A DNA stretch of 64,000 nt from a virus. The stretch is taken from IMG/VR virus record IMGVR_UViG_3300005537_000023, positions 9,233-73,232 of that record; one strand, given 5' to 3'. Made by a program: the position numbers and the translations under genes. Shown here in pieces: positions 7,382-56,865 of the stretch. Positions within the stretch are counted from its first letter, which is position 1, and every line of letters starts with the position of its first letter. The notes beneath the pieces are model-generated. The model worked only from the letters and a program-made list of their open reading frames with translations. It was not told the origin of the DNA and ran no database searches.

Positions 7382-8404
7382 GTGGCGTACGAGCCTACTT
7401 TCGCGATCGACTGTATCGGAAGGGATCCTGGCGCCATGGGCAAAGTGGCGCTTGGAAGGCTCGCGGCCGCTCTCGTGGACATCAACGCGGAGTACATCCG
7501 GACCTACCCCGGAAGCTTCGCGAGTGTCTATGAGAGCGGCTTCGTCATTGGCGAACCGCTTGGCCGTGGCGGCCTGTGCGGCGATCGCCGCTGGCAAGAC
7601 GTCGCCGTGATGAGGGATTCCGGCATCGTCAAGCCGGACGATCTCGTGATGGCGCGCGTCGCCGAGTTGAACGAGGTGGAGAAAATCGCCGCCAAGGTGC
7701 GGGTGTACTCGAACGATGACGGCCTATACGAGTTGCTGGTGGAGTGGCCTGCAACGCTTCCCGTCGGTGCCGTATACCCCGAGAGCGTCTACCCGCACCC
7801 GATCGACGGCGCCCTCGTCGAGTCCCCGTCGGAAGCGATGGGCTCGCGCGAAAAGGCGTCTTTCGTCGCGCCCAAGCGCCCGTATCGGCTGACGATCGCC
7901 GTCGACTGCATCGGCGAGGATCATCCCGAGGCCGTGCGGATGGCCGTGGATCACTGCATGGGATACCTGCTGCACGCGCTGACGGACATCGACGAGATGT
8001 ACCTCCGCGCCTTCCCGGACAAATTCCAGCTGCTGTACCAGTCGTGTGTTGTCTATGATCGCATGAATCCGCCCGCTGGCAGCGCGTGCGGCGACGACGA
8101 CTGGCAAGACATCGTTGTCACCTACGAGAGTTGCAAAGGCGACTGCGAAGACGTGGCGTGCATTCGCGCCGCGGAGGTCAATGTCCACTACAGCATCCCC
8201 GTTGTGCCCATGGTGATGCTGCAACAGAATCTTCAACCTGGCGCGCGCACTCGTCACCTCTACCACGTGATGGACAAGTGGCCCGATGGCCTTGGCAACT
8301 ACCCACCAAGCGTCTTCGCAGATCAGACGGATCAGGGTATGATGATGATGGAGTGCCCCTCAACGGTGTTGGGCATGACCGGAGATGAAGAGGCCGCGCA
8401 ATGA
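7382..8404 (+). CDS. Tandem transglutaminase-like (papain-fold) cysteine protease; domain 1 lacks the catalytic Cys
   Basis: Internal duplication (IDCIG/VDCIG, CGD..WQD, R.AE.N); domain 2 GDCEDVACIRAAE...YHV...ECPSTVLGM. Confidence 0.7.
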   Translation: MAYEPTFAIDCIGRDPGAMGKVALGRLAAALVDINAEYIRTYPGSFASVYESGFVIGEPLGRGGLCGDRRWQDVAVMRDSGIVKPDDLVMARVAELNEVEKIAAKVRVYSNDDGLYELLVEWPATLPVGAVYPESVYPHPIDGALVESPSEAMGSREKASFVAPKRPYRLTIAVDCIGEDHPEAVRMAVDHCMGYLLHALTDIDEMYLRAFPDKFQLLYQSCVVYDRMNPPAGSACGDDDWQDIVVTYESCKGDCEDVACIRAAEVNVHYSIPVVPMVMLQQNLQPGARTRHLYHVMDKWPDGLGNYPPSVFADQTDQGMMMMECPSTVLGMTGDEEAAQ

Positions 8405-8997: not shown

Positions 8998-9905
8998 AAC
9001 CGCTTGAATGGCTCGCGCTCGCGGCACTCGGCGTCGTCGGCTACTTCTTCTGGAGGAGCCGGCAGACGCAGACGACGAGTCCAGCGTGCCCCGCGCAGAC
9101 GCAACTGGACGGCTGGCTTTCGGACATCGCCACAGGCAAGATGACGACGGACGACGCCAACAAGTTGGCGCAGTCCTACGCCGGCGCGACGCCCCCGTGC
9201 ACCGACGCCGTCTCTGCCATCAACGCGGCGATCGCGGCGAAGGGCGGGATCGTCAAGGCATCCTCGCTGGCGCCAATTCACAGCGCCGCGCCGCTGGGTA
9301 AGGCCCCGCCGCCGCCAGGTGGTGTGCTGTACACGCCGCCTGGCACCCTTGTGCCGCACAGCCTGACGGATGCAGAGGCCGCCGAATTCTTCGGCGACTT
9401 CGCGGACACGGCAGGATTCCCCGGGCTGCTGACGGACTTCCTCGCGGCGAATCCAAAGCTTGCCGTGTACGCGCCGCCGGGCGGATGGCCGCCCAACACC
9501 TCGTTTCGCTACACCTACAGCGATTCCGGCACCACGGCCTACCCGGCCGGGCATGCCACGACGTTCGTTCCAACCGGCCGATTCGGCCCCGGCGACGTCC
9601 CCACGTACACGAGCACCAACCCGGCGATCACAGGCGAATGGACCTTTGCCGCGTGGGACCAGTACACCAACGACGCGCCCGGCGGTGGATACCAGCCGGC
9701 CCGAGACGCATCCGGCAAGCCCATCGCCCCGGACCCCACGCCGGCAACGTCAAGCAGCGGGCAGCGCCTCAACAACTTGGGCGTGTGGATTTGGGAGCCT
9801 GGCACCCAGGTGATGATCAAAAACAACTCGCCCGCCGCCGCATCCACCGCCGGGGTGGGCTTTGCGCCCCCGCCTCTTCTACTCGCCGCGGAGCCCTGGC
9901 AATGA
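8994..9905 (+). CDS. Membrane-anchored Pro/Thr-rich virion protein
   Basis: N-terminal TM helix WLALAALGVVGYFFW; C-terminal STAGVGFAPPPLLLAA. Confidence 0.7.
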   Translation: MKPLEWLALAALGVVGYFFWRSRQTQTTSPACPAQTQLDGWLSDIATGKMTTDDANKLAQSYAGATPPCTDAVSAINAAIAAKGGIVKASSLAPIHSAAPLGKAPPPPGGVLYTPPGTLVPHSLTDAEAAEFFGDFADTAGFPGLLTDFLAANPKLAVYAPPGGWPPNTSFRYTYSDSGTTAYPAGHATTFVPTGRFGPGDVPTYTSTNPAITGEWTFAAWDQYTNDAPGGGYQPARDASGKPIAPDPTPATSSSGQRLNNLGVWIWEPGTQVMIKNNSPAAASTAGVGFAPPPLLLAAEPWQ

Positions 9906-50990: not shown

Positions 50991-51298
50991 GCGCCAAGGG
51001 CAAGCCGGACGGCAAGCGCGCCGTCCTCATCACCGACACGCATCGCGGCATCTACTTCGGCTACCTCGTGGAGGAGTTGGAGGGCGGGAATGCGGTGCGC
51101 CTCGAAAACGCGCGCCACTGCTGGTCGTACGTCTGCCTCCCCGATCATCCTGGCGTGTACGGACTTGCGTCCGGTGGCCCCGGCCCTGGCAGCCGCATCG
51201 GCCCACGATGGAATGGCAAGGTGCGCGACGTCTCCAAAGTCGTCGACGTCAGCGCGTCCGCCGTCGCCAAGTGGGAGGCCGCGGAGTGGAAGCGGTAA
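50987..51298 (+). CDS. DUF6948-like (Sm-like fold) phage protein
   Basis: VLITDTHRGIYFGYL...LENARHCWSY...GLASGGP. Confidence 0.7.
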   Translation: MSAKGKPDGKRAVLITDTHRGIYFGYLVEELEGGNAVRLENARHCWSYVCLPDHPGVYGLASGGPGPGSRIGPRWNGKVRDVSKVVDVSASAVAKWEAAEWKR

Positions 51299-51822
51299 AC
51301 CGGAAAGTCATCTCGGCTGGCGACGGCGGCGGCGACGGCGGCGGCGACGGCGGCGGCGGCGGCTACGGCGACGGCGGCGGCTACGGCGGCGGCGACGGCT
51401 ACGGCGACGGCGACGGCGACGGCTACGGCGACGGCGACGGCGGCGGCGACGGCTACGGCGACGGCGGCGGCTACGGCGACGGCGGCGGCTACGGCGGCGG
51501 CGGCGGCTACGGCGGCGGCGGCGAGATCGAGGTTGAAGAATCGCAACCAATCGCCGCCTATCACTTCGTCCCCAAAAATGGCCTACTCCGCCATGCCCAC
51601 GGCGGCCAGCGCCCGAAGGCGGAGGTGGGCCTCGTGCTGCGGTGGGAAAGCGAGTTGTCCATGTGCTCGGCCGGCCTGCACGCCTCACTCGAAATCGAAC
51701 AAGCGCGCAGGTACTGCAACGGTATCCTCACCCGCGTTGCCTGCTACGGCCGCATTCGCTTCGGCGAAGACAAGCTGGTTTGCCAGGTGCGCGAGGTGAT
51801 TGAAGTGCTGGGCGAGGTCTGA
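51286..51822 (+). CDS. Gly-Asp-Gly-Tyr repeat protein with DUF7666-like C-terminal domain
   Basis: (GDG/GYG) repeat then MCSAGLHAS...EDKLVC. Confidence 0.7.
   Translation: MEAVNRKVISAGDGGGDGGGDGGGGGYGDGGGYGGGDGYGDGDGDGYGDGDGGGDGYGDGGGYGDGGGYGGGGGYGGGGEIEVEESQPIAAYHFVPKNGLLRHAHGGQRPKAEVGLVLRWESELSMCSAGLHASLEIEQARRYCNGILTRVACYGRIRFGEDKLVCQVREVIEVLGEV
51318..51522 (+). repeat. GGC/GAC/TAC low-complexity coding repeat
   Basis: Run of GGCGAC, GGCGGC and GGCTAC units. Confidence 0.85.
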
Positions 51823-51826
51823 CGCC

Positions 51827-52315
51827 ATGCCTCACCGCCACGCCACCCCCAACCCCGCCGATCCGCGCTACCCCGACATGCTGGCCAAGCGCGCCAGCGG
51901 CCTCACCATGCAGGCCATCGGCGCCGAGTACGGCATCTCACGGGAGAGGGTGCGGCAGATCATCGGCAACCAAGGGTATCTGCCGCCCGAGGACTGGACG
52001 GGGCGGAAGCGCCGATGGCTGACGGTGATCGATGGCACCACCTCTCCGCGCATCACTGTCCAGTGCAAGTGCGGGACGGTAAAGGAGGTGAGGCGCGGCA
52101 ACTTCATGCATCCTCGCGCGTGGTCGTGCGGCTGCTACCAACGGAAGGTGGTGGGCGCCCTTCGCCGGAAGCTTTCGGACGCCGACGTGCGGCGACTGCG
52201 GCGCTGGCGCGACAACGGATGGACGTTCAAGGCGCTCGCGGCGCACTTCGGGATTAGTCACATGTACGCATGGCAACTTTACAATCGATGGCATGGAAGG
52301 AGGGCCGGGGCATGA
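51827..52315 (+). CDS. Double-HTH protein with HNH-family N-terminal-like zinc module
   Basis: GLTMQAIGAEYGISRERVRQI; QCKCG...SCGC; TFKALAAHFGIS. Confidence 0.65.
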   Translation: MPHRHATPNPADPRYPDMLAKRASGLTMQAIGAEYGISRERVRQIIGNQGYLPPEDWTGRKRRWLTVIDGTTSPRITVQCKCGTVKEVRRGNFMHPRAWSCGCYQRKVVGALRRKLSDADVRRLRRWRDNGWTFKALAAHFGISHMYAWQLYNRWHGRRAGA

Positions 52316-54312
52316 CTGACCTAGAGGCCTATCGCGCGTTCATTGCGCGGAAGCTTGCGACGGCGCCCGTCGAAGGCATCCCCAACCACGGCCCCATCTC
52401 GCCGCTACTCTTTCCGCACCAACGGACGATGGTGGACGTGGCGTTGCGGAAGGGACGATTCGCGCTCTTCCACGACACAGGGCTGGGCAAAGGGTGGCAA
52501 ATCCTCGAATGGGCGCGGCTCGTTGGCGAGCACACCGGCAAGCCCGTGCTCGTCCTAGCGCCGCTCGCCGTCGCCCGGCAATTCGAGCGCGAGGCCGCCA
52601 AACTCGGGACGGCCGTGCGCATCGTCTCGTCCGCCGCCGACGTCGGGCCTGGCATCAACGTCACCAACTACCACAAGCTGCACAAATTCGACGTATCGGT
52701 CTTCTCGGGCGTGGCGCTGGACGAGTCCTCGATCTTGAAGTCTTTCGACGGCACGACACGCACGGCCTTGATCGAAGCCTTCGCCAACACGCCGTACCGA
52801 CTTTGCGCGACGGCGACGCCTTCGCCCAACGATCACACGGAGTTGGGCAATCACGGCATGTTTCTCGGCGTCATGTCGTACGCGGAGATGCTGTCCATGT
52901 TTTTCGTGCACGACGGCAGTAGCAGCGCGTCGACGGGCGGATGGAGGTTGAAGGGGCACGCGCGCGACGTTTTCTGGCGATGGGTTGCGACGTGGGCGGC
53001 AAGCCTTCGCCGTCCGTCGGACCTTGGATTCGCTGACGACGGCTACGACCTCCCGCCGATGACTTTCCACGAGCACGTCATCCCCGGCGATTTGAAGCAG
53101 GCGCACGCGTCCGGCGCGCTATTCGTCACCGCCGCGTCCACGCTCGCAGAGCAACGCGCGGCACGGCGCGGGACGTTGGACGCACGCGTGGCGAAGTGCG
53201 CGGAGATCGTTGCCGCGGAACCGGACCAAGATTTTCTGATATGGGTGGACCTGAATGACGAGGGCGACGCGATTGAAGCAGCCGTGCCTGGCGCCGTCCA
53301 AGTGTCTGGTTCTGACGACGACGATTTCAAGGTATCGGCCGCCGAGTGGTTTTCTGGAGGTTGCGCGTGTCCGTGCGGAAAAACTACTGGAACGAGCGAT
53401 ATCACTCGGATGAGGACTGGCGACGCGAGCGCATCGCAAAATCCAAGCAGAGATGGGAGTCGCTTCCAATCGACGCGAGACGCAAATATCAGCGAGAGTA
53501 CATGCGTGAGTACTCCAAGCGACCAGACGTCATCGCCAAACGCGCGGCCAAGCGACTTGAACGACTCGCCAAGCGACGCCAGCAGTACGCGTCCGACCCA
53601 TCGCTCAGGGAGCGGTACCGACGATACGCCAAAGAATGGGCGGCAAAAAACCCGGACAAGCGTGAGGAGTGGAGGCTCAGCGCCTACGGACTCACTCAAC
53701 CACAATGGGACGCCATGCTCGCCAAGCAGGGCGGGTGTTGCGCAATCTGCGGAAGGGCTAACGGGACAGAGCGTACCAGACTATCCAGGAACGGCCGTAG
53801 ACGGTTGCATATCGACCACTGCCACGCGACCGGAATCGTGCGTGGACTCCTTTGCGGGCCATGCAATCTTGGGATCGGGTACTTCTCTGACGACATCGGC
53901 AAGCTCAGAAAGGCGATTCTGTACCTGCGGAAGGCCTCTCGGAGGAAGAAAGGTGCTCGTCTCTAAGAGTGCGATTTTTGGCTTTGGGCTTAACTTCCAG
54001 ACTTGCTCGCGCGTCGTCTTCTGCGGCGTCTCTCACAGTTTCGAGGGGTGGTACCAGGCCATTCGCCGCGTGTGGCGATTCGGCCAGCGCAACCCCGTCA
54101 ACGTGCACATGGTCACGAGCGAGTTGGAGGGGCGTGTCGTGGAAAACCTGAAACGGAAGCAGCGCGACGCGGAGGACATGGCGCAGTCCATGGTGGCTGC
54201 GATGGCGGACTTCTGTCGCGCGGAGATTGGTGCGACGCAGAGGCAGACGATCGACTACAGCCCGACGGTACCCATGAGGGTGCCGGCGTGGTTGAGGACG
54301 GAGGGGACGTGA
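52312..54312 (+). CDS. SNF2-like SF2 helicase with a ~195 aa Ser/Thr-rich in-frame insertion
   Basis: LFPHQ, DTGLGKG, LDESSILK, TATPSPND, FGFGLNFQ, YQAIRRVWRFGQ. Confidence 0.88.
   Translation: MTDLEAYRAFIARKLATAPVEGIPNHGPISPLLFPHQRTMVDVALRKGRFALFHDTGLGKGWQILEWARLVGEHTGKPVLVLAPLAVARQFEREAAKLGTAVRIVSSAADVGPGINVTNYHKLHKFDVSVFSGVALDESSILKSFDGTTRTALIEAFANTPYRLCATATPSPNDHTELGNHGMFLGVMSYAEMLSMFFVHDGSSSASTGGWRLKGHARDVFWRWVATWAASLRRPSDLGFADDGYDLPPMTFHEHVIPGDLKQAHASGALFVTAASTLAEQRAARRGTLDARVAKCAEIVAAEPDQDFLIWVDLNDEGDAIEAAVPGAVQVSGSDDDDFKVSAAEWFSGGCACPCGKTTGTSDITRMRTGDASASQNPSRDGSRFQSTRDANISESTCVSTPSDQTSSPNARPSDLNDSPSDASSTRPTHRSGSGTDDTPKNGRQKTRTSVRSGGSAPTDSLNHNGTPCSPSRAGVAQSAEGLTGQSVPDYPGTAVDGCISTTATRPESCVDSFAGHAILGSGTSLTTSASSERRFCTCGRPLGGRKVLVSKSAIFGFGLNFQTCSRVVFCGVSHSFEGWYQAIRRVWRFGQRNPVNVHMVTSELEGRVVENLKRKQRDAEDMAQSMVAAMADFCRAEIGATQRQTIDYSPTVPMRVPAWLRTEGT
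53367..53966 (+). CDS. Endonuclease VII-type HNH homing endonuclease nested out of frame in the helicase
   Basis: GGAGG 53356-60 then GTG 53367; YGLT...QGGCCAIC...LHIDHCHATGIVRGLLCGPCNLGIG...AILYL. Confidence 0.88.
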   Translation: MSVRKNYWNERYHSDEDWRRERIAKSKQRWESLPIDARRKYQREYMREYSKRPDVIAKRAAKRLERLAKRRQQYASDPSLRERYRRYAKEWAAKNPDKREEWRLSAYGLTQPQWDAMLAKQGGCCAICGRANGTERTRLSRNGRRRLHIDHCHATGIVRGLLCGPCNLGIGYFSDDIGKLRKAILYLRKASRRKKGARL

Positions 54313-55409
54313 GCGATCTTGCGGCACGCCCAACGTTGCTAGTCTCCGTGGAGAAGGCGCGCGATCTGCTGGCCAAGGCGCGCACGTTCGATGACGTGAA
54401 ACGCGTGCGCGATGTCGCCGTGGCGATGCGTGCGTACGCTAGGACGCAGAAGGCCGGCCGGGAGATCGCACTCGACGCAGCCGAGATAGTCTTCCGCGCC
54501 GACGCGCGCATGGGGGAGTTGGCGAGGGGGTTGGCGAAGGTGCCGGCGGGACGTGAAAAGAATAGGTCCGGCCCTCGGACCAATTCCAAGCTCGCCACCC
54601 TCGCCGACCTCGGGGTGACGAAGCAGAGGGCGAGCGAGCAGCAGCGGGTGGCGTCCATGGGCGAGGACGTGTGGGAGAAATACCTGCGCGCGTGCCGCGG
54701 AGAAGGCCGTGCTCCAGTGACATCCGAAGCGGCCAAGATTGCAGCGATGCCCCCGCGCGCGATGACCAGCGTTATCACCAGGATGGCGAAGGGGGAGGCA
54801 ACAAGAAGCGTCCTCGCCGAAGCCTGTCGGGCGATCCGCGTCGGCAAGTTGGCCGAGATCGCGAAAGGCGAGGTGCCATTAACCGGATCGATGGGGCGGT
54901 TTCCTGTGATCTTGGCCGATCCGCCATGGCGATACGAGCACGTGAAAACGGAGAGCCGGGCGATCGAAAACCAGTACCCGTCCATGGATCTAGACGACAT
55001 CCGCCGAATGCCCGTCGCGGATATCGCCACGACAGACTCCATCCTTTTTCTGTGGGCGACGTCGCCCAAGTTGACGGAGTCCCTGTCAGTTGTGGACGCG
55101 TGGGGATTCACCTACCGGACGTGCGCCGTGTGGACCAAGGACATGATTGGTATGGGGTACTACTTCCGTCAGCAACACGAACTGCTTCTCGTATGCACTC
55201 GCGGAAACCCACCGACGCCGGCACCGTCCGATCGCGTATCGTCGGTTGTGTCCGCGTCGCGAGGCAAGCACTCCGCCAAGCCGGTGGAATTCTACGAGAT
55301 CATTGAGCGGATGTACCCGACCCTACCAAAGGTTGAGTTATTCTGCCGATCGCCGCGCAGTGGTTGGCAGGCATGGGGCAATCAGGCCAGCAAGGAGGCT
55401 GCCGAATGA
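54309..55409 (+). CDS. MT-A70-family adenine methyltransferase
   Basis: VILADPPWRY, YPSM, LFLWAT, GMGYYFRQQHELLL, HSAKP, KVELFCR, WGNQ. Confidence 0.9.
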   Translation: MSDLAARPTLLVSVEKARDLLAKARTFDDVKRVRDVAVAMRAYARTQKAGREIALDAAEIVFRADARMGELARGLAKVPAGREKNRSGPRTNSKLATLADLGVTKQRASEQQRVASMGEDVWEKYLRACRGEGRAPVTSEAAKIAAMPPRAMTSVITRMAKGEATRSVLAEACRAIRVGKLAEIAKGEVPLTGSMGRFPVILADPPWRYEHVKTESRAIENQYPSMDLDDIRRMPVADIATTDSILFLWATSPKLTESLSVVDAWGFTYRTCAVWTKDMIGMGYYFRQQHELLLVCTRGNPPTPAPSDRVSSVVSASRGKHSAKPVEFYEIIERMYPTLPKVELFCRSPRSGWQAWGNQASKEAAE

Positions 55410-55972
55410 CGTGGCGGGACGATCTTGATTGGAGCAACGGGGCACGCGTGTCCCCGATTTGGGATGCTGCCTACGGCGCGCTGTTTCCGAAGTCTCGGAT
55501 CGAAAGACCGGTTGCCGATCTGACCATGCAGCGCCGTGGAATCGACGCCAGGATCTGGACAGGAACTGACCATCAGCAGACGATCGACGAGAAGACTCGC
55601 CGTGTGAACTACGGCGACATCGCGCTGGAGTACGTTCACGTTTACGCCTCTGGCGGCGAGTCGGCGGGGTGGATGAACCTTGATTTGTCGATCGACTGGC
55701 TTGGGTACGCCGTGCCGAGTGTTGCCGGCGGCGTCGGCTGCGTAACGTTTATTCCGTGGGCGCCGCTCCGTCGCGCATGGGGGAAATTGCGCACCGAATG
55801 GATCGGTCTGGCCGAACGATCGGAGGCCGGTTTTCAGTTGGTGAAGAGCGGGCGAAATAACAACGGGTACATGACCTATTCCGTCGCCGTCCCTCGTCGC
55901 GTGCTGCTTGATTCAGTTAGGGATTCCATGATGGTGGAGATTACTCAGGCAATGATCGGTGGGGCGCGATGA
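55406..55972 (+). CDS. PD-(D/E)XK nuclease-like protein
   Basis: QRRGID...TIDEK...DIALE. Confidence 0.65.
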   Translation: MTWRDDLDWSNGARVSPIWDAAYGALFPKSRIERPVADLTMQRRGIDARIWTGTDHQQTIDEKTRRVNYGDIALEYVHVYASGGESAGWMNLDLSIDWLGYAVPSVAGGVGCVTFIPWAPLRRAWGKLRTEWIGLAERSEAGFQLVKSGRNNNGYMTYSVAVPRRVLLDSVRDSMMVEITQAMIGGAR

Positions 55973-56865
55973 ACGTTCTCAATCAGGCCGAGGGCGCCGG
56001 CTGGACGGCATTCCATGGCGACTGTGCCGAGGTGATGCTGGGCATGCCGGAATCAAGCGTGCACCTCACGGTCACGTCCATCCCCTTTGCCAGCCTTTTC
56101 ACCTACAGCAACTCGGATCGCGACTTCGGCAACTGCAAATCGCACGCGCAGTTTTTCGAGCAATTCGGCTTCTTCGCGCCGGCCCTACTGCGCGTGACGA
56201 AACCGGGACGACTCGCCGCGATCCACTGCATGAATTTGCCGACGTCCAAGACGCGCGACGGCCACATCGGCCTAAGCGACTTTCGCGGCGAGGTGATCCG
56301 CTCGTTCGAGGACGCTGGCTGGATCTTTCACGCCGAGACTGTGATCTGGAAGGATCCAGTCACTGCGATGCAAAGGACGAAGGCGCTCGGCCTGCTGTGG
56401 AAGCAACTGAAAAAGGACTCCGCGATGAGCCGTATGGGCATCCCCGACACCATCGTCTTTTTTCGCAAGCCCGGCGAAAACGAGTGCGCCGTCTCTCACT
56501 CCGCCGCGGACTTCCCGGTGGACCAATGGCAACGGTGGGCATCGCCGGTGTGGATGGACATCGACCAATCCGACACCCTCCAATTCCGCAGCGTCCGCGA
56601 AAACGAAGACGAGCGTCATCTTTGCCCTCTCCAGCTCGAACCGATCCGCCGTTGCCTCACCCTCTACAGCAACCCCGGTGACGTCGTCTTCGATCCGTTC
56701 GGCGGCATCGGAAGCACAGGCGTCGTCGCGCTCCACAACAATCGCAAGACCGTCATCGCCGAGTTGAAGGAAGTTTACTGGAAGCAGGCCGTGGCCAACT
56801 TGCGCGAGGCGGAGACGGCGGGGAAGCGGCAGCCGTCGCTGGACTTCGGGAGGGCGGCGCCGTGA
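55969..56865 (+). CDS. N4/N6 DNA methyltransferase (beta-class motif order)
   Basis: TSIPF catalytic motif precedes HLCPLQL and FDPFGGIGSTG. Confidence 0.88.
   Translation: MNVLNQAEGAGWTAFHGDCAEVMLGMPESSVHLTVTSIPFASLFTYSNSDRDFGNCKSHAQFFEQFGFFAPALLRVTKPGRLAAIHCMNLPTSKTRDGHIGLSDFRGEVIRSFEDAGWIFHAETVIWKDPVTAMQRTKALGLLWKQLKKDSAMSRMGIPDTIVFFRKPGENECAVSHSAADFPVDQWQRWASPVWMDIDQSDTLQFRSVRENEDERHLCPLQLEPIRRCLTLYSNPGDVVFDPFGGIGSTGVVALHNNRKTVIAELKEVYWKQAVANLREAETAGKRQPSLDFGRAAP

Follow-up and report, generated by a model that had tools for sequence, protein, structure and literature searches.

How can a complete nuclease gene lie in the middle of another protein-coding gene and leave that gene usable? 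On the usual view, a homing endonuclease spares its host gene by residing in an intron, in an intein or between genes. The question is raised by a 64-kb stretch of viral DNA (hereafter the window; 64,000 nucleotides, positions 9,233 to 73,232 of the IMG/VR record IMGVR_UViG_3300005537_000023), whose source record is a complete virus of 73,232 bp with direct terminal repeats. Within the window, a gene for an Endonuclease VII (EndoVII)-type HNH nuclease lies inside the gene of a Snf2-family helicase, in another reading frame (Table 1). An earlier note on this DNA, made from the letters alone, had proposed that a homing-type nuclease occupies a coding gene in a splicing-free way, the host protein tolerating an additional loop. 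This core inference stood up to comparison: the host frame was open in 10 of 10 distinct nested lineages and in 0 of 78 free-standing relatives, and no splicing signature was found. In our view, the locus is probably a mobile homing-type EndoVII/HNH cassette that occupies a loop on the surface of the helicase, in its second RecA-like lobe. Nothing would be spliced, the helicase would be read through the cassette as a floppy loop, and, at the insertion site used in the window (site A), a cysteine (Cys) clasp would hold the ends of that loop.

Table 1. Features of the helicase gene and the nested nuclease gene, in positions of the window.
Feature	Position	Strand	Remarks
Snf2-family helicase/ATPase open reading frame	52270..54312	+	680 aa; frame continuous through the insert
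Putative mobile cassette in the helicase frame, W360-R560	53347..53949	+	Trp marker, 5′ Cys pair, HNH gene, 3′ Cys pair
Shine-Dalgarno-like GGAGG	53356..53360	+	six bases ahead of the HNH GTG; read from the sequence
Cys bracket, 5′ half (helicase-frame CACPC)	53362..53376	+	
Endonuclease VII-type HNH gene, 199 aa	53367 (GTG)..53966 (end of TAA)	+	frame −1 relative to the helicase
HNH motif CAICG	53739-53753	+	
HNH motif HIDHCH	53808-53825	+	
HNH motif CGPCN	53853-53867	+	
Cys bracket, 3′ half (helicase-frame CTCG)	53920..53931	+	overlaps the HNH C-terminal LYLR
GGAGG and in-frame GTG, possible restart of the C-terminal part of the helicase	53941..53955	+	not favoured

The open reading frame (ORF) of the nested gene matched the Pfam profile Endonuclease_7 (PF02945) with E = 1.6e-22 and 79.6 bits, against a curated cut-off of 23.6, and contained the CxxC...H-x-DH-x-H...CxxCN arrangement of the Endonuclease VII family. 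Both this match and the coordinates agree with the earlier description of a complete EndoVII-type gene that has its own GGAGG/GTG start in another frame of the helicase. The zinc-binding and catalytic motif columns were invariant in 9 of 9 nested HNH genes, so the nuclease looks intact, a working gene. Its terminal codons and stop overlap the VLVSK motif of the helicase. The helicase ORF itself matched the Pfam domains SNF2-rel_dom (23.0 bits, cut-off 24.9) and Helicase_C below threshold. Its predicted fold was closest, in Foldseek, to Mot1, CSB, ISWI, RapA and Rad54 (E from 3e-14 to 1e-9), and Snf2-type ATPases were the best 49 of the 50 listed PDB matches; these fold matches place the ORF among the Swi2/Snf2-family ATPases, which are marked by a two-lobe RecA-like core with helical protrusions specific to Snf2. 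Homologues were numerous (7,995 at E ≤ 0.001 among 8,000 candidates scored) and typically 464-470 aa long. The helicase motifs were invariant in insert-bearing and insert-free alignment rows alike, so the helicase looks intact as well.

The junctions, which the earlier note had left to uninterrupted homologues, were fixed against 99 insert-free rows. The conserved Phe and the Lys of VLVSK are 11-12 residues apart in 99 of 110 homologues (alignment A4) and 206 residues apart in the window. In the insert-free viral loci L048-L051, two codons correspond to the 196 of the window (C365 to R560), which run from CACPC to the CTC at 53920-53928, after which the helicase sequence resumes at KVLVSK...FGFGLNFQ. 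The whole crossing is free of stops, and its Ser and Thr content is 31%, with 11% of ILMFVWY, compared to 12% and 32%, respectively, in the rest of the helicase; the crossing of about 195 Ser/Thr-rich codons announced earlier was thus measured almost exactly. The G+C content is 0.55-0.61 in the insert and 0.63-0.69 in the flanks. A Trp directly before the conserved Phe (residue 360) was found in 10 of the 11 rows that bear the insert or only its Cys pairs (knuckle-only helicases, described below) and in none of the 99 insert-free rows (p = 2e-13). Because the Trp is confined to such rows, its codon appears to travel with the cassette.

The decisive evidence that the open frame is more than chance comes from natural controls. 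Scanning viral contigs by the HNH gene gave 39 loci, two of which (L002 and L003) had the gene inside the same helicase family at a second insertion site (site B), located upstream of the W.VWC.LN strand. Seven site-A loci (L041-L047, of which L047 duplicates L045) were added by a scan keyed to the helicase motif downstream, and when cultured phages were searched by tblastn, the two top HNH matches lay under the coding sequence (CDS) named ‘DNA helicase’ in the Gordonia phages Malisha (gp71) and Squiddly (gp64), at site B. The searches that yielded nested loci set no open-frame requirement. Nevertheless, the host frame had no stop over 177-243 codons in 10 of 10 distinct nested lineages, from loci of 30-63% G+C, and the HNH gene was in the host frame −1 in every one of the ten. 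The nine distinct nested loci with an HNH-gene G+C content of 29-59% were all open, likewise Malisha and Squiddly, and so were the low-G+C loci L044 (30%) and L045 (35%). By contrast, free-standing HNH relatives read in the same frame were never open, with 0/30 in one control set (2-14 stops), 0/43 in another (2-20) and 0/5 in the last (4-11). The difference between 10/10 and 0/78 gave a Fisher p of 2e-13; identical control rows were dropped within each set only (8, 1 and 1), and the sets may overlap each other. Homologous inserts with stops in the host frame, which the earlier note had suggested looking for, were not met among the nested loci. At the level of sequence, the comparison shows that the host frame is under selection to remain open. 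Further sampling added little: a single-protein scan of metagenomes (45 loci) gave a nested case only in the already-found L042 contig, the same scan of a genome collection gave one short contig of a metagenome-assembled genome, and re-scans of the viral contigs with the HNH genes of L002 and L041 gave no further nested lineage.

Taken singly, the open frame of the window is only mildly unusual. When the codons of its HNH gene were permuted synonymously, as the earlier note had proposed, the helicase frame was open in 3.2% of 20,000 shuffles and in 3.9% of 3,000, and the third frame in 0.02% (20,000-shuffle run). Open frames were therefore uncommon in shuffles of the window, but they were common for some nested genes, reaching 72% for L043. 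The test is weak alone because the nested genes are already depleted in codons that create +1 stops. Frequent open shuffles of several nested genes show that their codon and residue make-up is already adapted and that the test understates the effect.

We also compared the two frames of nine nested genes in all 36 pairs. Differences were most frequent at HNH codon position 3 (0.60), followed by position 1 (0.49) and position 2 (0.40). The mean amino-acid identity was 40% in the HNH frame and 23% in the helicase frame, and the HNH frame was the more conserved one in 36/36 pairs. Even STTAT, a seeming motif of the helicase frame, is a shifted reading of IDHCHAT. Judged from these alignments, the helicase-frame reading of the insert is constrained mainly to be open and hydrophilic. 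The word ‘overprinted’, applied to the locus earlier, is right in that two frames use one stretch, but it is a loose term, as the nuclease reading is older and under constraint, and the helicase frame is its passenger.

In the AlphaFold2 model of the window helicase, built with the 110-row alignment, the core had predicted local distance difference test (pLDDT) values above 90, whereas residues 382-516 and 518-544 had values below 50 and no secondary structure. The insert thus models as a disordered loop. The Cys-bearing blocks at its ends were predicted with much higher confidence, pLDDT 92 for residues 361-370 and 89 for residues 551-560.

These blocks contain CACPC and CTC at the very positions given in the earlier note. 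Both TGT and TGC serve as Cys codons, and the residue in the middle differs (A/P, V, I, T, E, L), yet the Cys themselves are conserved. At E ≤ 0.001, a profile built from the insert as read in the helicase frame hit 191 clusters in a set of 1.84 billion representatives. Of the best 150 of these 191, 94 had both helicase halves, and 38 of the 94 were assigned to site A by motif rules. Both Cys pairs were present in 33 of the 38 site-A representatives, neither in 5 and a single pair in none (p = 2e-6, the rows being phylogenetically dependent). Locus L046 also has neither pair. Moreover, a CxC and a CxCG with 9-21 residues looped between them occur in three helicases devoid of an HNH gene, P0042, P0080 and P0104. 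AlphaFold2 predicted one of these knuckle-only proteins, P0080 (Cys346, Cys348, Cys359 and Cys361), with a mean pLDDT of 89.1, the knuckle forming a small hairpin with values of 75-89. Given the covariation and the confidence of the models, the two Cys pairs probably make up a single small knuckle that would bind a metal ion, presumably zinc, and tie the loop ends. The survey of terminal CxC motifs suggested in the earlier note came out in favour of the bracket at site A, and also for the mycobacteriophage Pacc40 (below), but not at site B, where 0 of 18 inserts had it. By sequence, the proposed clasp is specific to the insertion site of the window.

Together, these observations suggest how the two genes could coexist. 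The nuclease would be translated separately, from its internal GGAGG-GTG start in the −1 frame. The cassette would be kept at both the RNA and the protein level, the helicase frame being held free of stops instead, and ribosomes translating the helicase would read through to give a full-length protein with a hydrophilic disordered loop of about 190 residues. A site-A cassette would bring along the CxC...CxCG knuckle that ties both loop ends, and this knuckle would be left behind once the nuclease gene is deleted. The HNH nuclease would presumably cleave empty alleles in the manner of homing. The cultured phages Malisha, Squiddly and Pacc40 carry the arrangement, and their records annotate one continuous CDS. 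As to transcription of the nuclease gene, a sigma-70 scan found no promoter-like site in the window insert and a single weak one in the 5′ arm of L045 (2283-2311). A different, conserved block, TTT(C/A)GTG(C/G)TA(A/T)A(C/T)T, was observed in L041-L045 about 6-25 nt upstream of the HNH ATG, ending 6-8 nt before it. This block is similar to an extended −10 element, and the HNH mRNA might be leaderless.

Could the insert instead be removed before the helicase is completed, as an intron with an ORF, as an intein-like element or through bypass of the T4 gene 60 type? It is suggestive that a profile search found the same out-of-frame EndoVII ‘shadow’ in terminase inteins, and that the first residue of the insert is Cys. 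We nevertheless consider removal highly improbable, as none of these mechanisms requires an open host frame, and yet all ten nested loci have one and none of the 78 controls does. The sequence-level marks of each class were also missing. Rfam at E ≤ 10 matched no RNA family, and hence no intron family, in 52000-55000, and the HNH ORF occupies the entire insert, with no space for a ribozyme core. Introns with an ORF also usually show stops in the host frame, of which there are none here. The absence of intein blocks, already remarked upon in the earlier note, was borne out by Pfam, which found no Hint or intein domain in the helicase but Intein_splicing in 7/7 shadow-bearing terminases, our positive control. 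The insert does not end in His-Asn (...RRF precedes CTCG), and AlphaFold2 gave no fold across residues 382-544. Since there is neither a Hint domain nor a fold, the loop should stay in the helicase. Bypass would call for a matched landing codon, for a stop after the take-off codon, which is absent, and for a gap of about 50 nt rather than the 588 nt seen here. We find it very unlikely, too, that the helicase is split in two, its N-terminal piece ending in junk sequence and its C-terminal piece being started on its own, the two assembling in trans. Homing endonucleases do split phage genes, e.g. T4 gene 39/60 (PMC5009743), and in the window GGAGG (53941-45) stands seven bases ahead of an in-frame GTG (53953), just before VLVSK. 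A split gene would not, however, select against host-frame stops; no comparable pair of a Shine-Dalgarno sequence and a start was seen at the 3′ junctions of L041-L046, and both halves share one frame in every nested locus. The chance that composition or faulty assembly accounts for the open frame, and that the helicase is a dead gene, seems negligible. The window has 63% G+C, and long spurious ORFs are common at this composition, such as a 220-aa ORF on the minus strand (53043..53705). But the frame is open at 30% and 35% G+C too, stops occur without exception in free-standing relatives of comparable G+C, every helicase motif is intact and cultured, viable phages carry the arrangement, so this explanation is already contradicted by the controls.

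Several points weigh against the combination of read-through and a protein clasp. The shuffle test on the window alone is weak, and it tells nothing for some nested genes. The survey of proteins is skewed in favour of open frames, the DNA-level sample of nested loci comprises ten lineages, and we infer read-through translation from selection alone. In the survey, 20 proteins start inside the insert and P0246 ends inside it, which may reflect contig ends or real breaks. The remaining points concern the Cys pairs, which could be by-products of HNH-frame starts, of the conserved HNH C-terminal [M/L]YLR or of terminal direct repeats, and no protein clasp. Start codons of the −1 frame (ATG, GTG, TTG) force Cys or Trp in the host frame, and TTG, GTG and GTG indeed underlie C-A-C-P-C in the window. 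The 3′ CxCG is a shifted reading of [M/L]YLR. Both cassette ends share a direct repeat of 9-11 bases built on ATGTATTTGC in L042-L045 (9 bases in L044, 10 of 11 in L045), and the site-B inserts are clasp-free. In view of the ATGTATTTGC end repeats and the [M/L]YLR overlap, conservation of the Cys could be partly at the DNA level or in the HNH frame. On balance, we regard the by-product explanation as unlikely. In L041-L045, some 40 nt that include HNH-frame stops separate the 5′ CxC from the HNH ATG downstream of it, so that this pair cannot be a by-product of the nuclease protein. The caveat of the earlier note, that the Cys codons may be by-products of the nuclease frame, consequently fails for the 5′ pair. 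Furthermore, the Cys are kept despite the variation of their codons and middle residues; both pairs are retained in HNH-less helicases and are jointly present or jointly absent; L044, with a G+C content of 30% (29% in its HNH ORF), retains CGG, a rare codon for the Arg whose triplet helps to form CxCG; and CRCLC...CPC surrounds an HNH gene of a different family at a third site in Pacc40 gp60. These features suggest that the Cys bracket is a feature of the protein and not a coding by-product.

A read-through cassette of this kind should be mobile if it is a homing element, and its distribution was examined on a FastTree tree of the helicases (123 rows, insert columns excluded). The well-supported branches forced at least 8 changes of the knuckle-plus-HNH state. 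The window fell in a 99%-supported clade of 51 rows, the other 50 of which are insert-free. As judged from this tree, the patchy distribution of the cassette is as expected of a homing element, and the scattered state changes argue that the HNH gene is transferred as a unit with the Trp and the Cys pairs. We must note that two state labels in the tree were wrong, L041 being labelled ‘none’ and P0009, which has a short HNH insert, ‘knuckle_only’. Knuckle-only P0080 is the sister of the HNH-bearing P0038, and knuckle-only helicases are best read as remnants after loss of the nuclease. The converse, that the knuckle is an ancestral helicase feature which received the HNH gene, was considered and rejected, as knuckle rows are scattered among insert-free ones and CxC occurs in 0/99 insert-free rows. 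In P0009 (551 aa, site A), about 85 residues separate the Cys pairs and the shifted DHCH core is retained; its insert may be a minimal or N-terminally truncated nested HNH gene, an intermediate towards the knuckle-only state. In the HNH tree (41 rows), the 11 nested genes of both sites grouped with two long-branch genes (SH-aLRT 88), both confirmed to be free-standing, and a single origin of the nested habit is possible from this topology.

The general arrangement is not new. A full-text literature search on overprinted or nested homing endonucleases gave nothing direct, and a broader one led to Arsenault, Gosselin & Gogarten (2025, Genes 16:178, PMC11855218), in whose accessible text the nested-HNH arrangement is already published. 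As reported there, the ‘ShiLan domain’ of mycobacteriophage methylases is an out-of-frame HNH gene; its host frame is stop-free, no splicing signature is present and the product is predicted to loop out. The second published case in that text is Pacc40 gp60. The window shares with both an HNH gene wholly inside a phage gene, in the ‘third’ frame, together with the stop-free host, the lack of a splicing signature, a host-frame product that is predicted to loop out and a disjunct, homing-like distribution, the last judged for the window from FastTree only. It differs in its host, a stand-alone Snf2-type helicase, and in its insertion site. The nuclease differs as well, being of the Endonuclease VII type in the window, an HNH with flanking zinc fingers in ShiLan and, by our own reading, HNH_3-like in Pacc40. 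Finally, the window HNH gene has a clear Shine-Dalgarno sequence, whereas leaderless starts are proposed in PMC11855218. The start of the ShiLan insert, like the 5′ ends described above, resembles the downstream flank (PMC11855218). In the HNH frame of L042-L045, the 5′ copy of the ATGTATTTGC-based repeat reads as a 4-codon mini-ORF, MYLQ, followed by a stop.

Pacc40 gp60 (L054:7102-11127) turned out to be related to our host, its helicase domain being 39% identical to the window helicase over 244 residues. The HNH_3-like ORF (7866-8345) is in the −1 frame and follows RPSDI, which makes it a third insertion site. In the record it goes under ‘anaerobic ribonucleoside reductase large subunit’, apparently a mis-annotation. 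Where the accessible text of PMC11855218 mentions cysteine or zinc, the subject is inteins and HNH zinc fingers, and no host-frame bracket is described in it. In the print literature covered, to the extent that its text was available, we did not find the Cys bracket with its covariation, the nuclease-less remnants or the control with free-standing relatives. The same holds for the low-G+C cases, the three insertion sites in one helicase family and the link to intein-borne relatives.

This link to inteins came from the helicase-frame shadow profile, which matched the terminase large subunits P0239, P0240, P0255, P0262, P0263, P0265 and P0266 inside their Intein_splicing domain. Since the profile matches these inteins directly, the nuclease lineages appear related. 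Terminase inteins share with the window the nuclease type and the frame relation (‘frame 3’); their shadow, however, is flanked by Hint and excised as protein, whereas the window insert has no Hint domain and no fold. Two proteins with an RNA ligase domain (PF09414), P0238 and P0258, also matched the profile, the RNA_ligase match of P0238 covering residues 39-351 for a profile of 171 positions. RNA ligase may, from these matches, be a further host gene for nested EndoVII. One helicase, P0205, has a site-B shadow insert as well as a Hint_2 intein-like insert, the latter directly after DE of motif II.

Other mobile elements offer partial parallels. In the homing cycle, mini-inteins and ORF-less introns represent a stage at which the endonuclease is lost and the tolerated insert is kept. 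Knuckle-only P0042, P0080 and P0104 resemble this endonuclease-lost stage, with the difference that what remains in them is no splicing element but a hairpin with four Cys, about 15-30 residues long, which the protein retains. Free-standing homing endonucleases of the T4 mobA type split phage genes, as in gene 39/60 (PMC5009743). There, as in the window, a homing endonuclease gene lies in a replication-type phage gene without an intron, but the T4 host becomes two genes, with bypass in gene 60, whereas here one frame is continuous. More tentatively, and with somewhat less than even confidence, we propose that the CxC...CxCG knuckle is a portable metal clasp carried by the mobile cassette which, together with a nuclease gene that is stop-free in the +1 frame, constitutes a third way of nesting besides introns and inteins, with the insert pushed out as a closed-off loop, and that the clasp persists as a scar once the nuclease has decayed. 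The occurrence of the same EndoVII lineage out of frame in terminase inteins suggests, as part of this tentative proposal, a group of nucleases adapted to living nested, which can pass from sites protected by an intein to sites protected by a clasp and back.

The family provides natural controls indicating that selection can keep a host frame open through a nuclease gene, so that the host protein would carry the insert. Nested nucleases of this kind are invisible to gene callers: in Malisha, in Squiddly and in all metagenomic homologues the locus was called as one long ‘helicase’, and the extra S/T-rich ‘domain’ of insert-bearing helicases is not a domain. If metal binding holds true, the Cys bracket would be a natural, transferable means by which a folded enzyme can accommodate some 200 extra residues. 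Read-through, homing and the clasp can be tested directly in cultured phages, two of Gordonia and one of mycobacteria.

Lastly, some features of the surroundings were recorded. Just upstream of the helicase, on the plus strand, the window encodes a protein with Sigma70_r4 and HTH_23 domains (51800-52315). Downstream, on the same strand, lies an MT-A70 methylase (54003/54309-55409), the start of which is probably a GTG overlapping the helicase stop, and further on an ORF (55969-56865) that looks DNA methylase-like by eye. Four helicases with nested HNH genes, P0127, P0156, P0208 and P0219, are fused to a DNA methylase (N6_N4_Mtase or MethyltransfD12), and these fusions mirror the helicase-then-methylase gene order of the window, Malisha and Squiddly. 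P0074, a helicase homologue of 583 aa, has an N-terminal HNH_3 domain fused in frame and no internal insert. On the plus strand at 51208-51822, an ORF encodes a long Gly/Asp/Tyr repeat (GGGDGYGDG...), with a local G+C content of up to 82%; the opposite strand and the other frames of this stretch read as Arg- or Ala-rich repeats.

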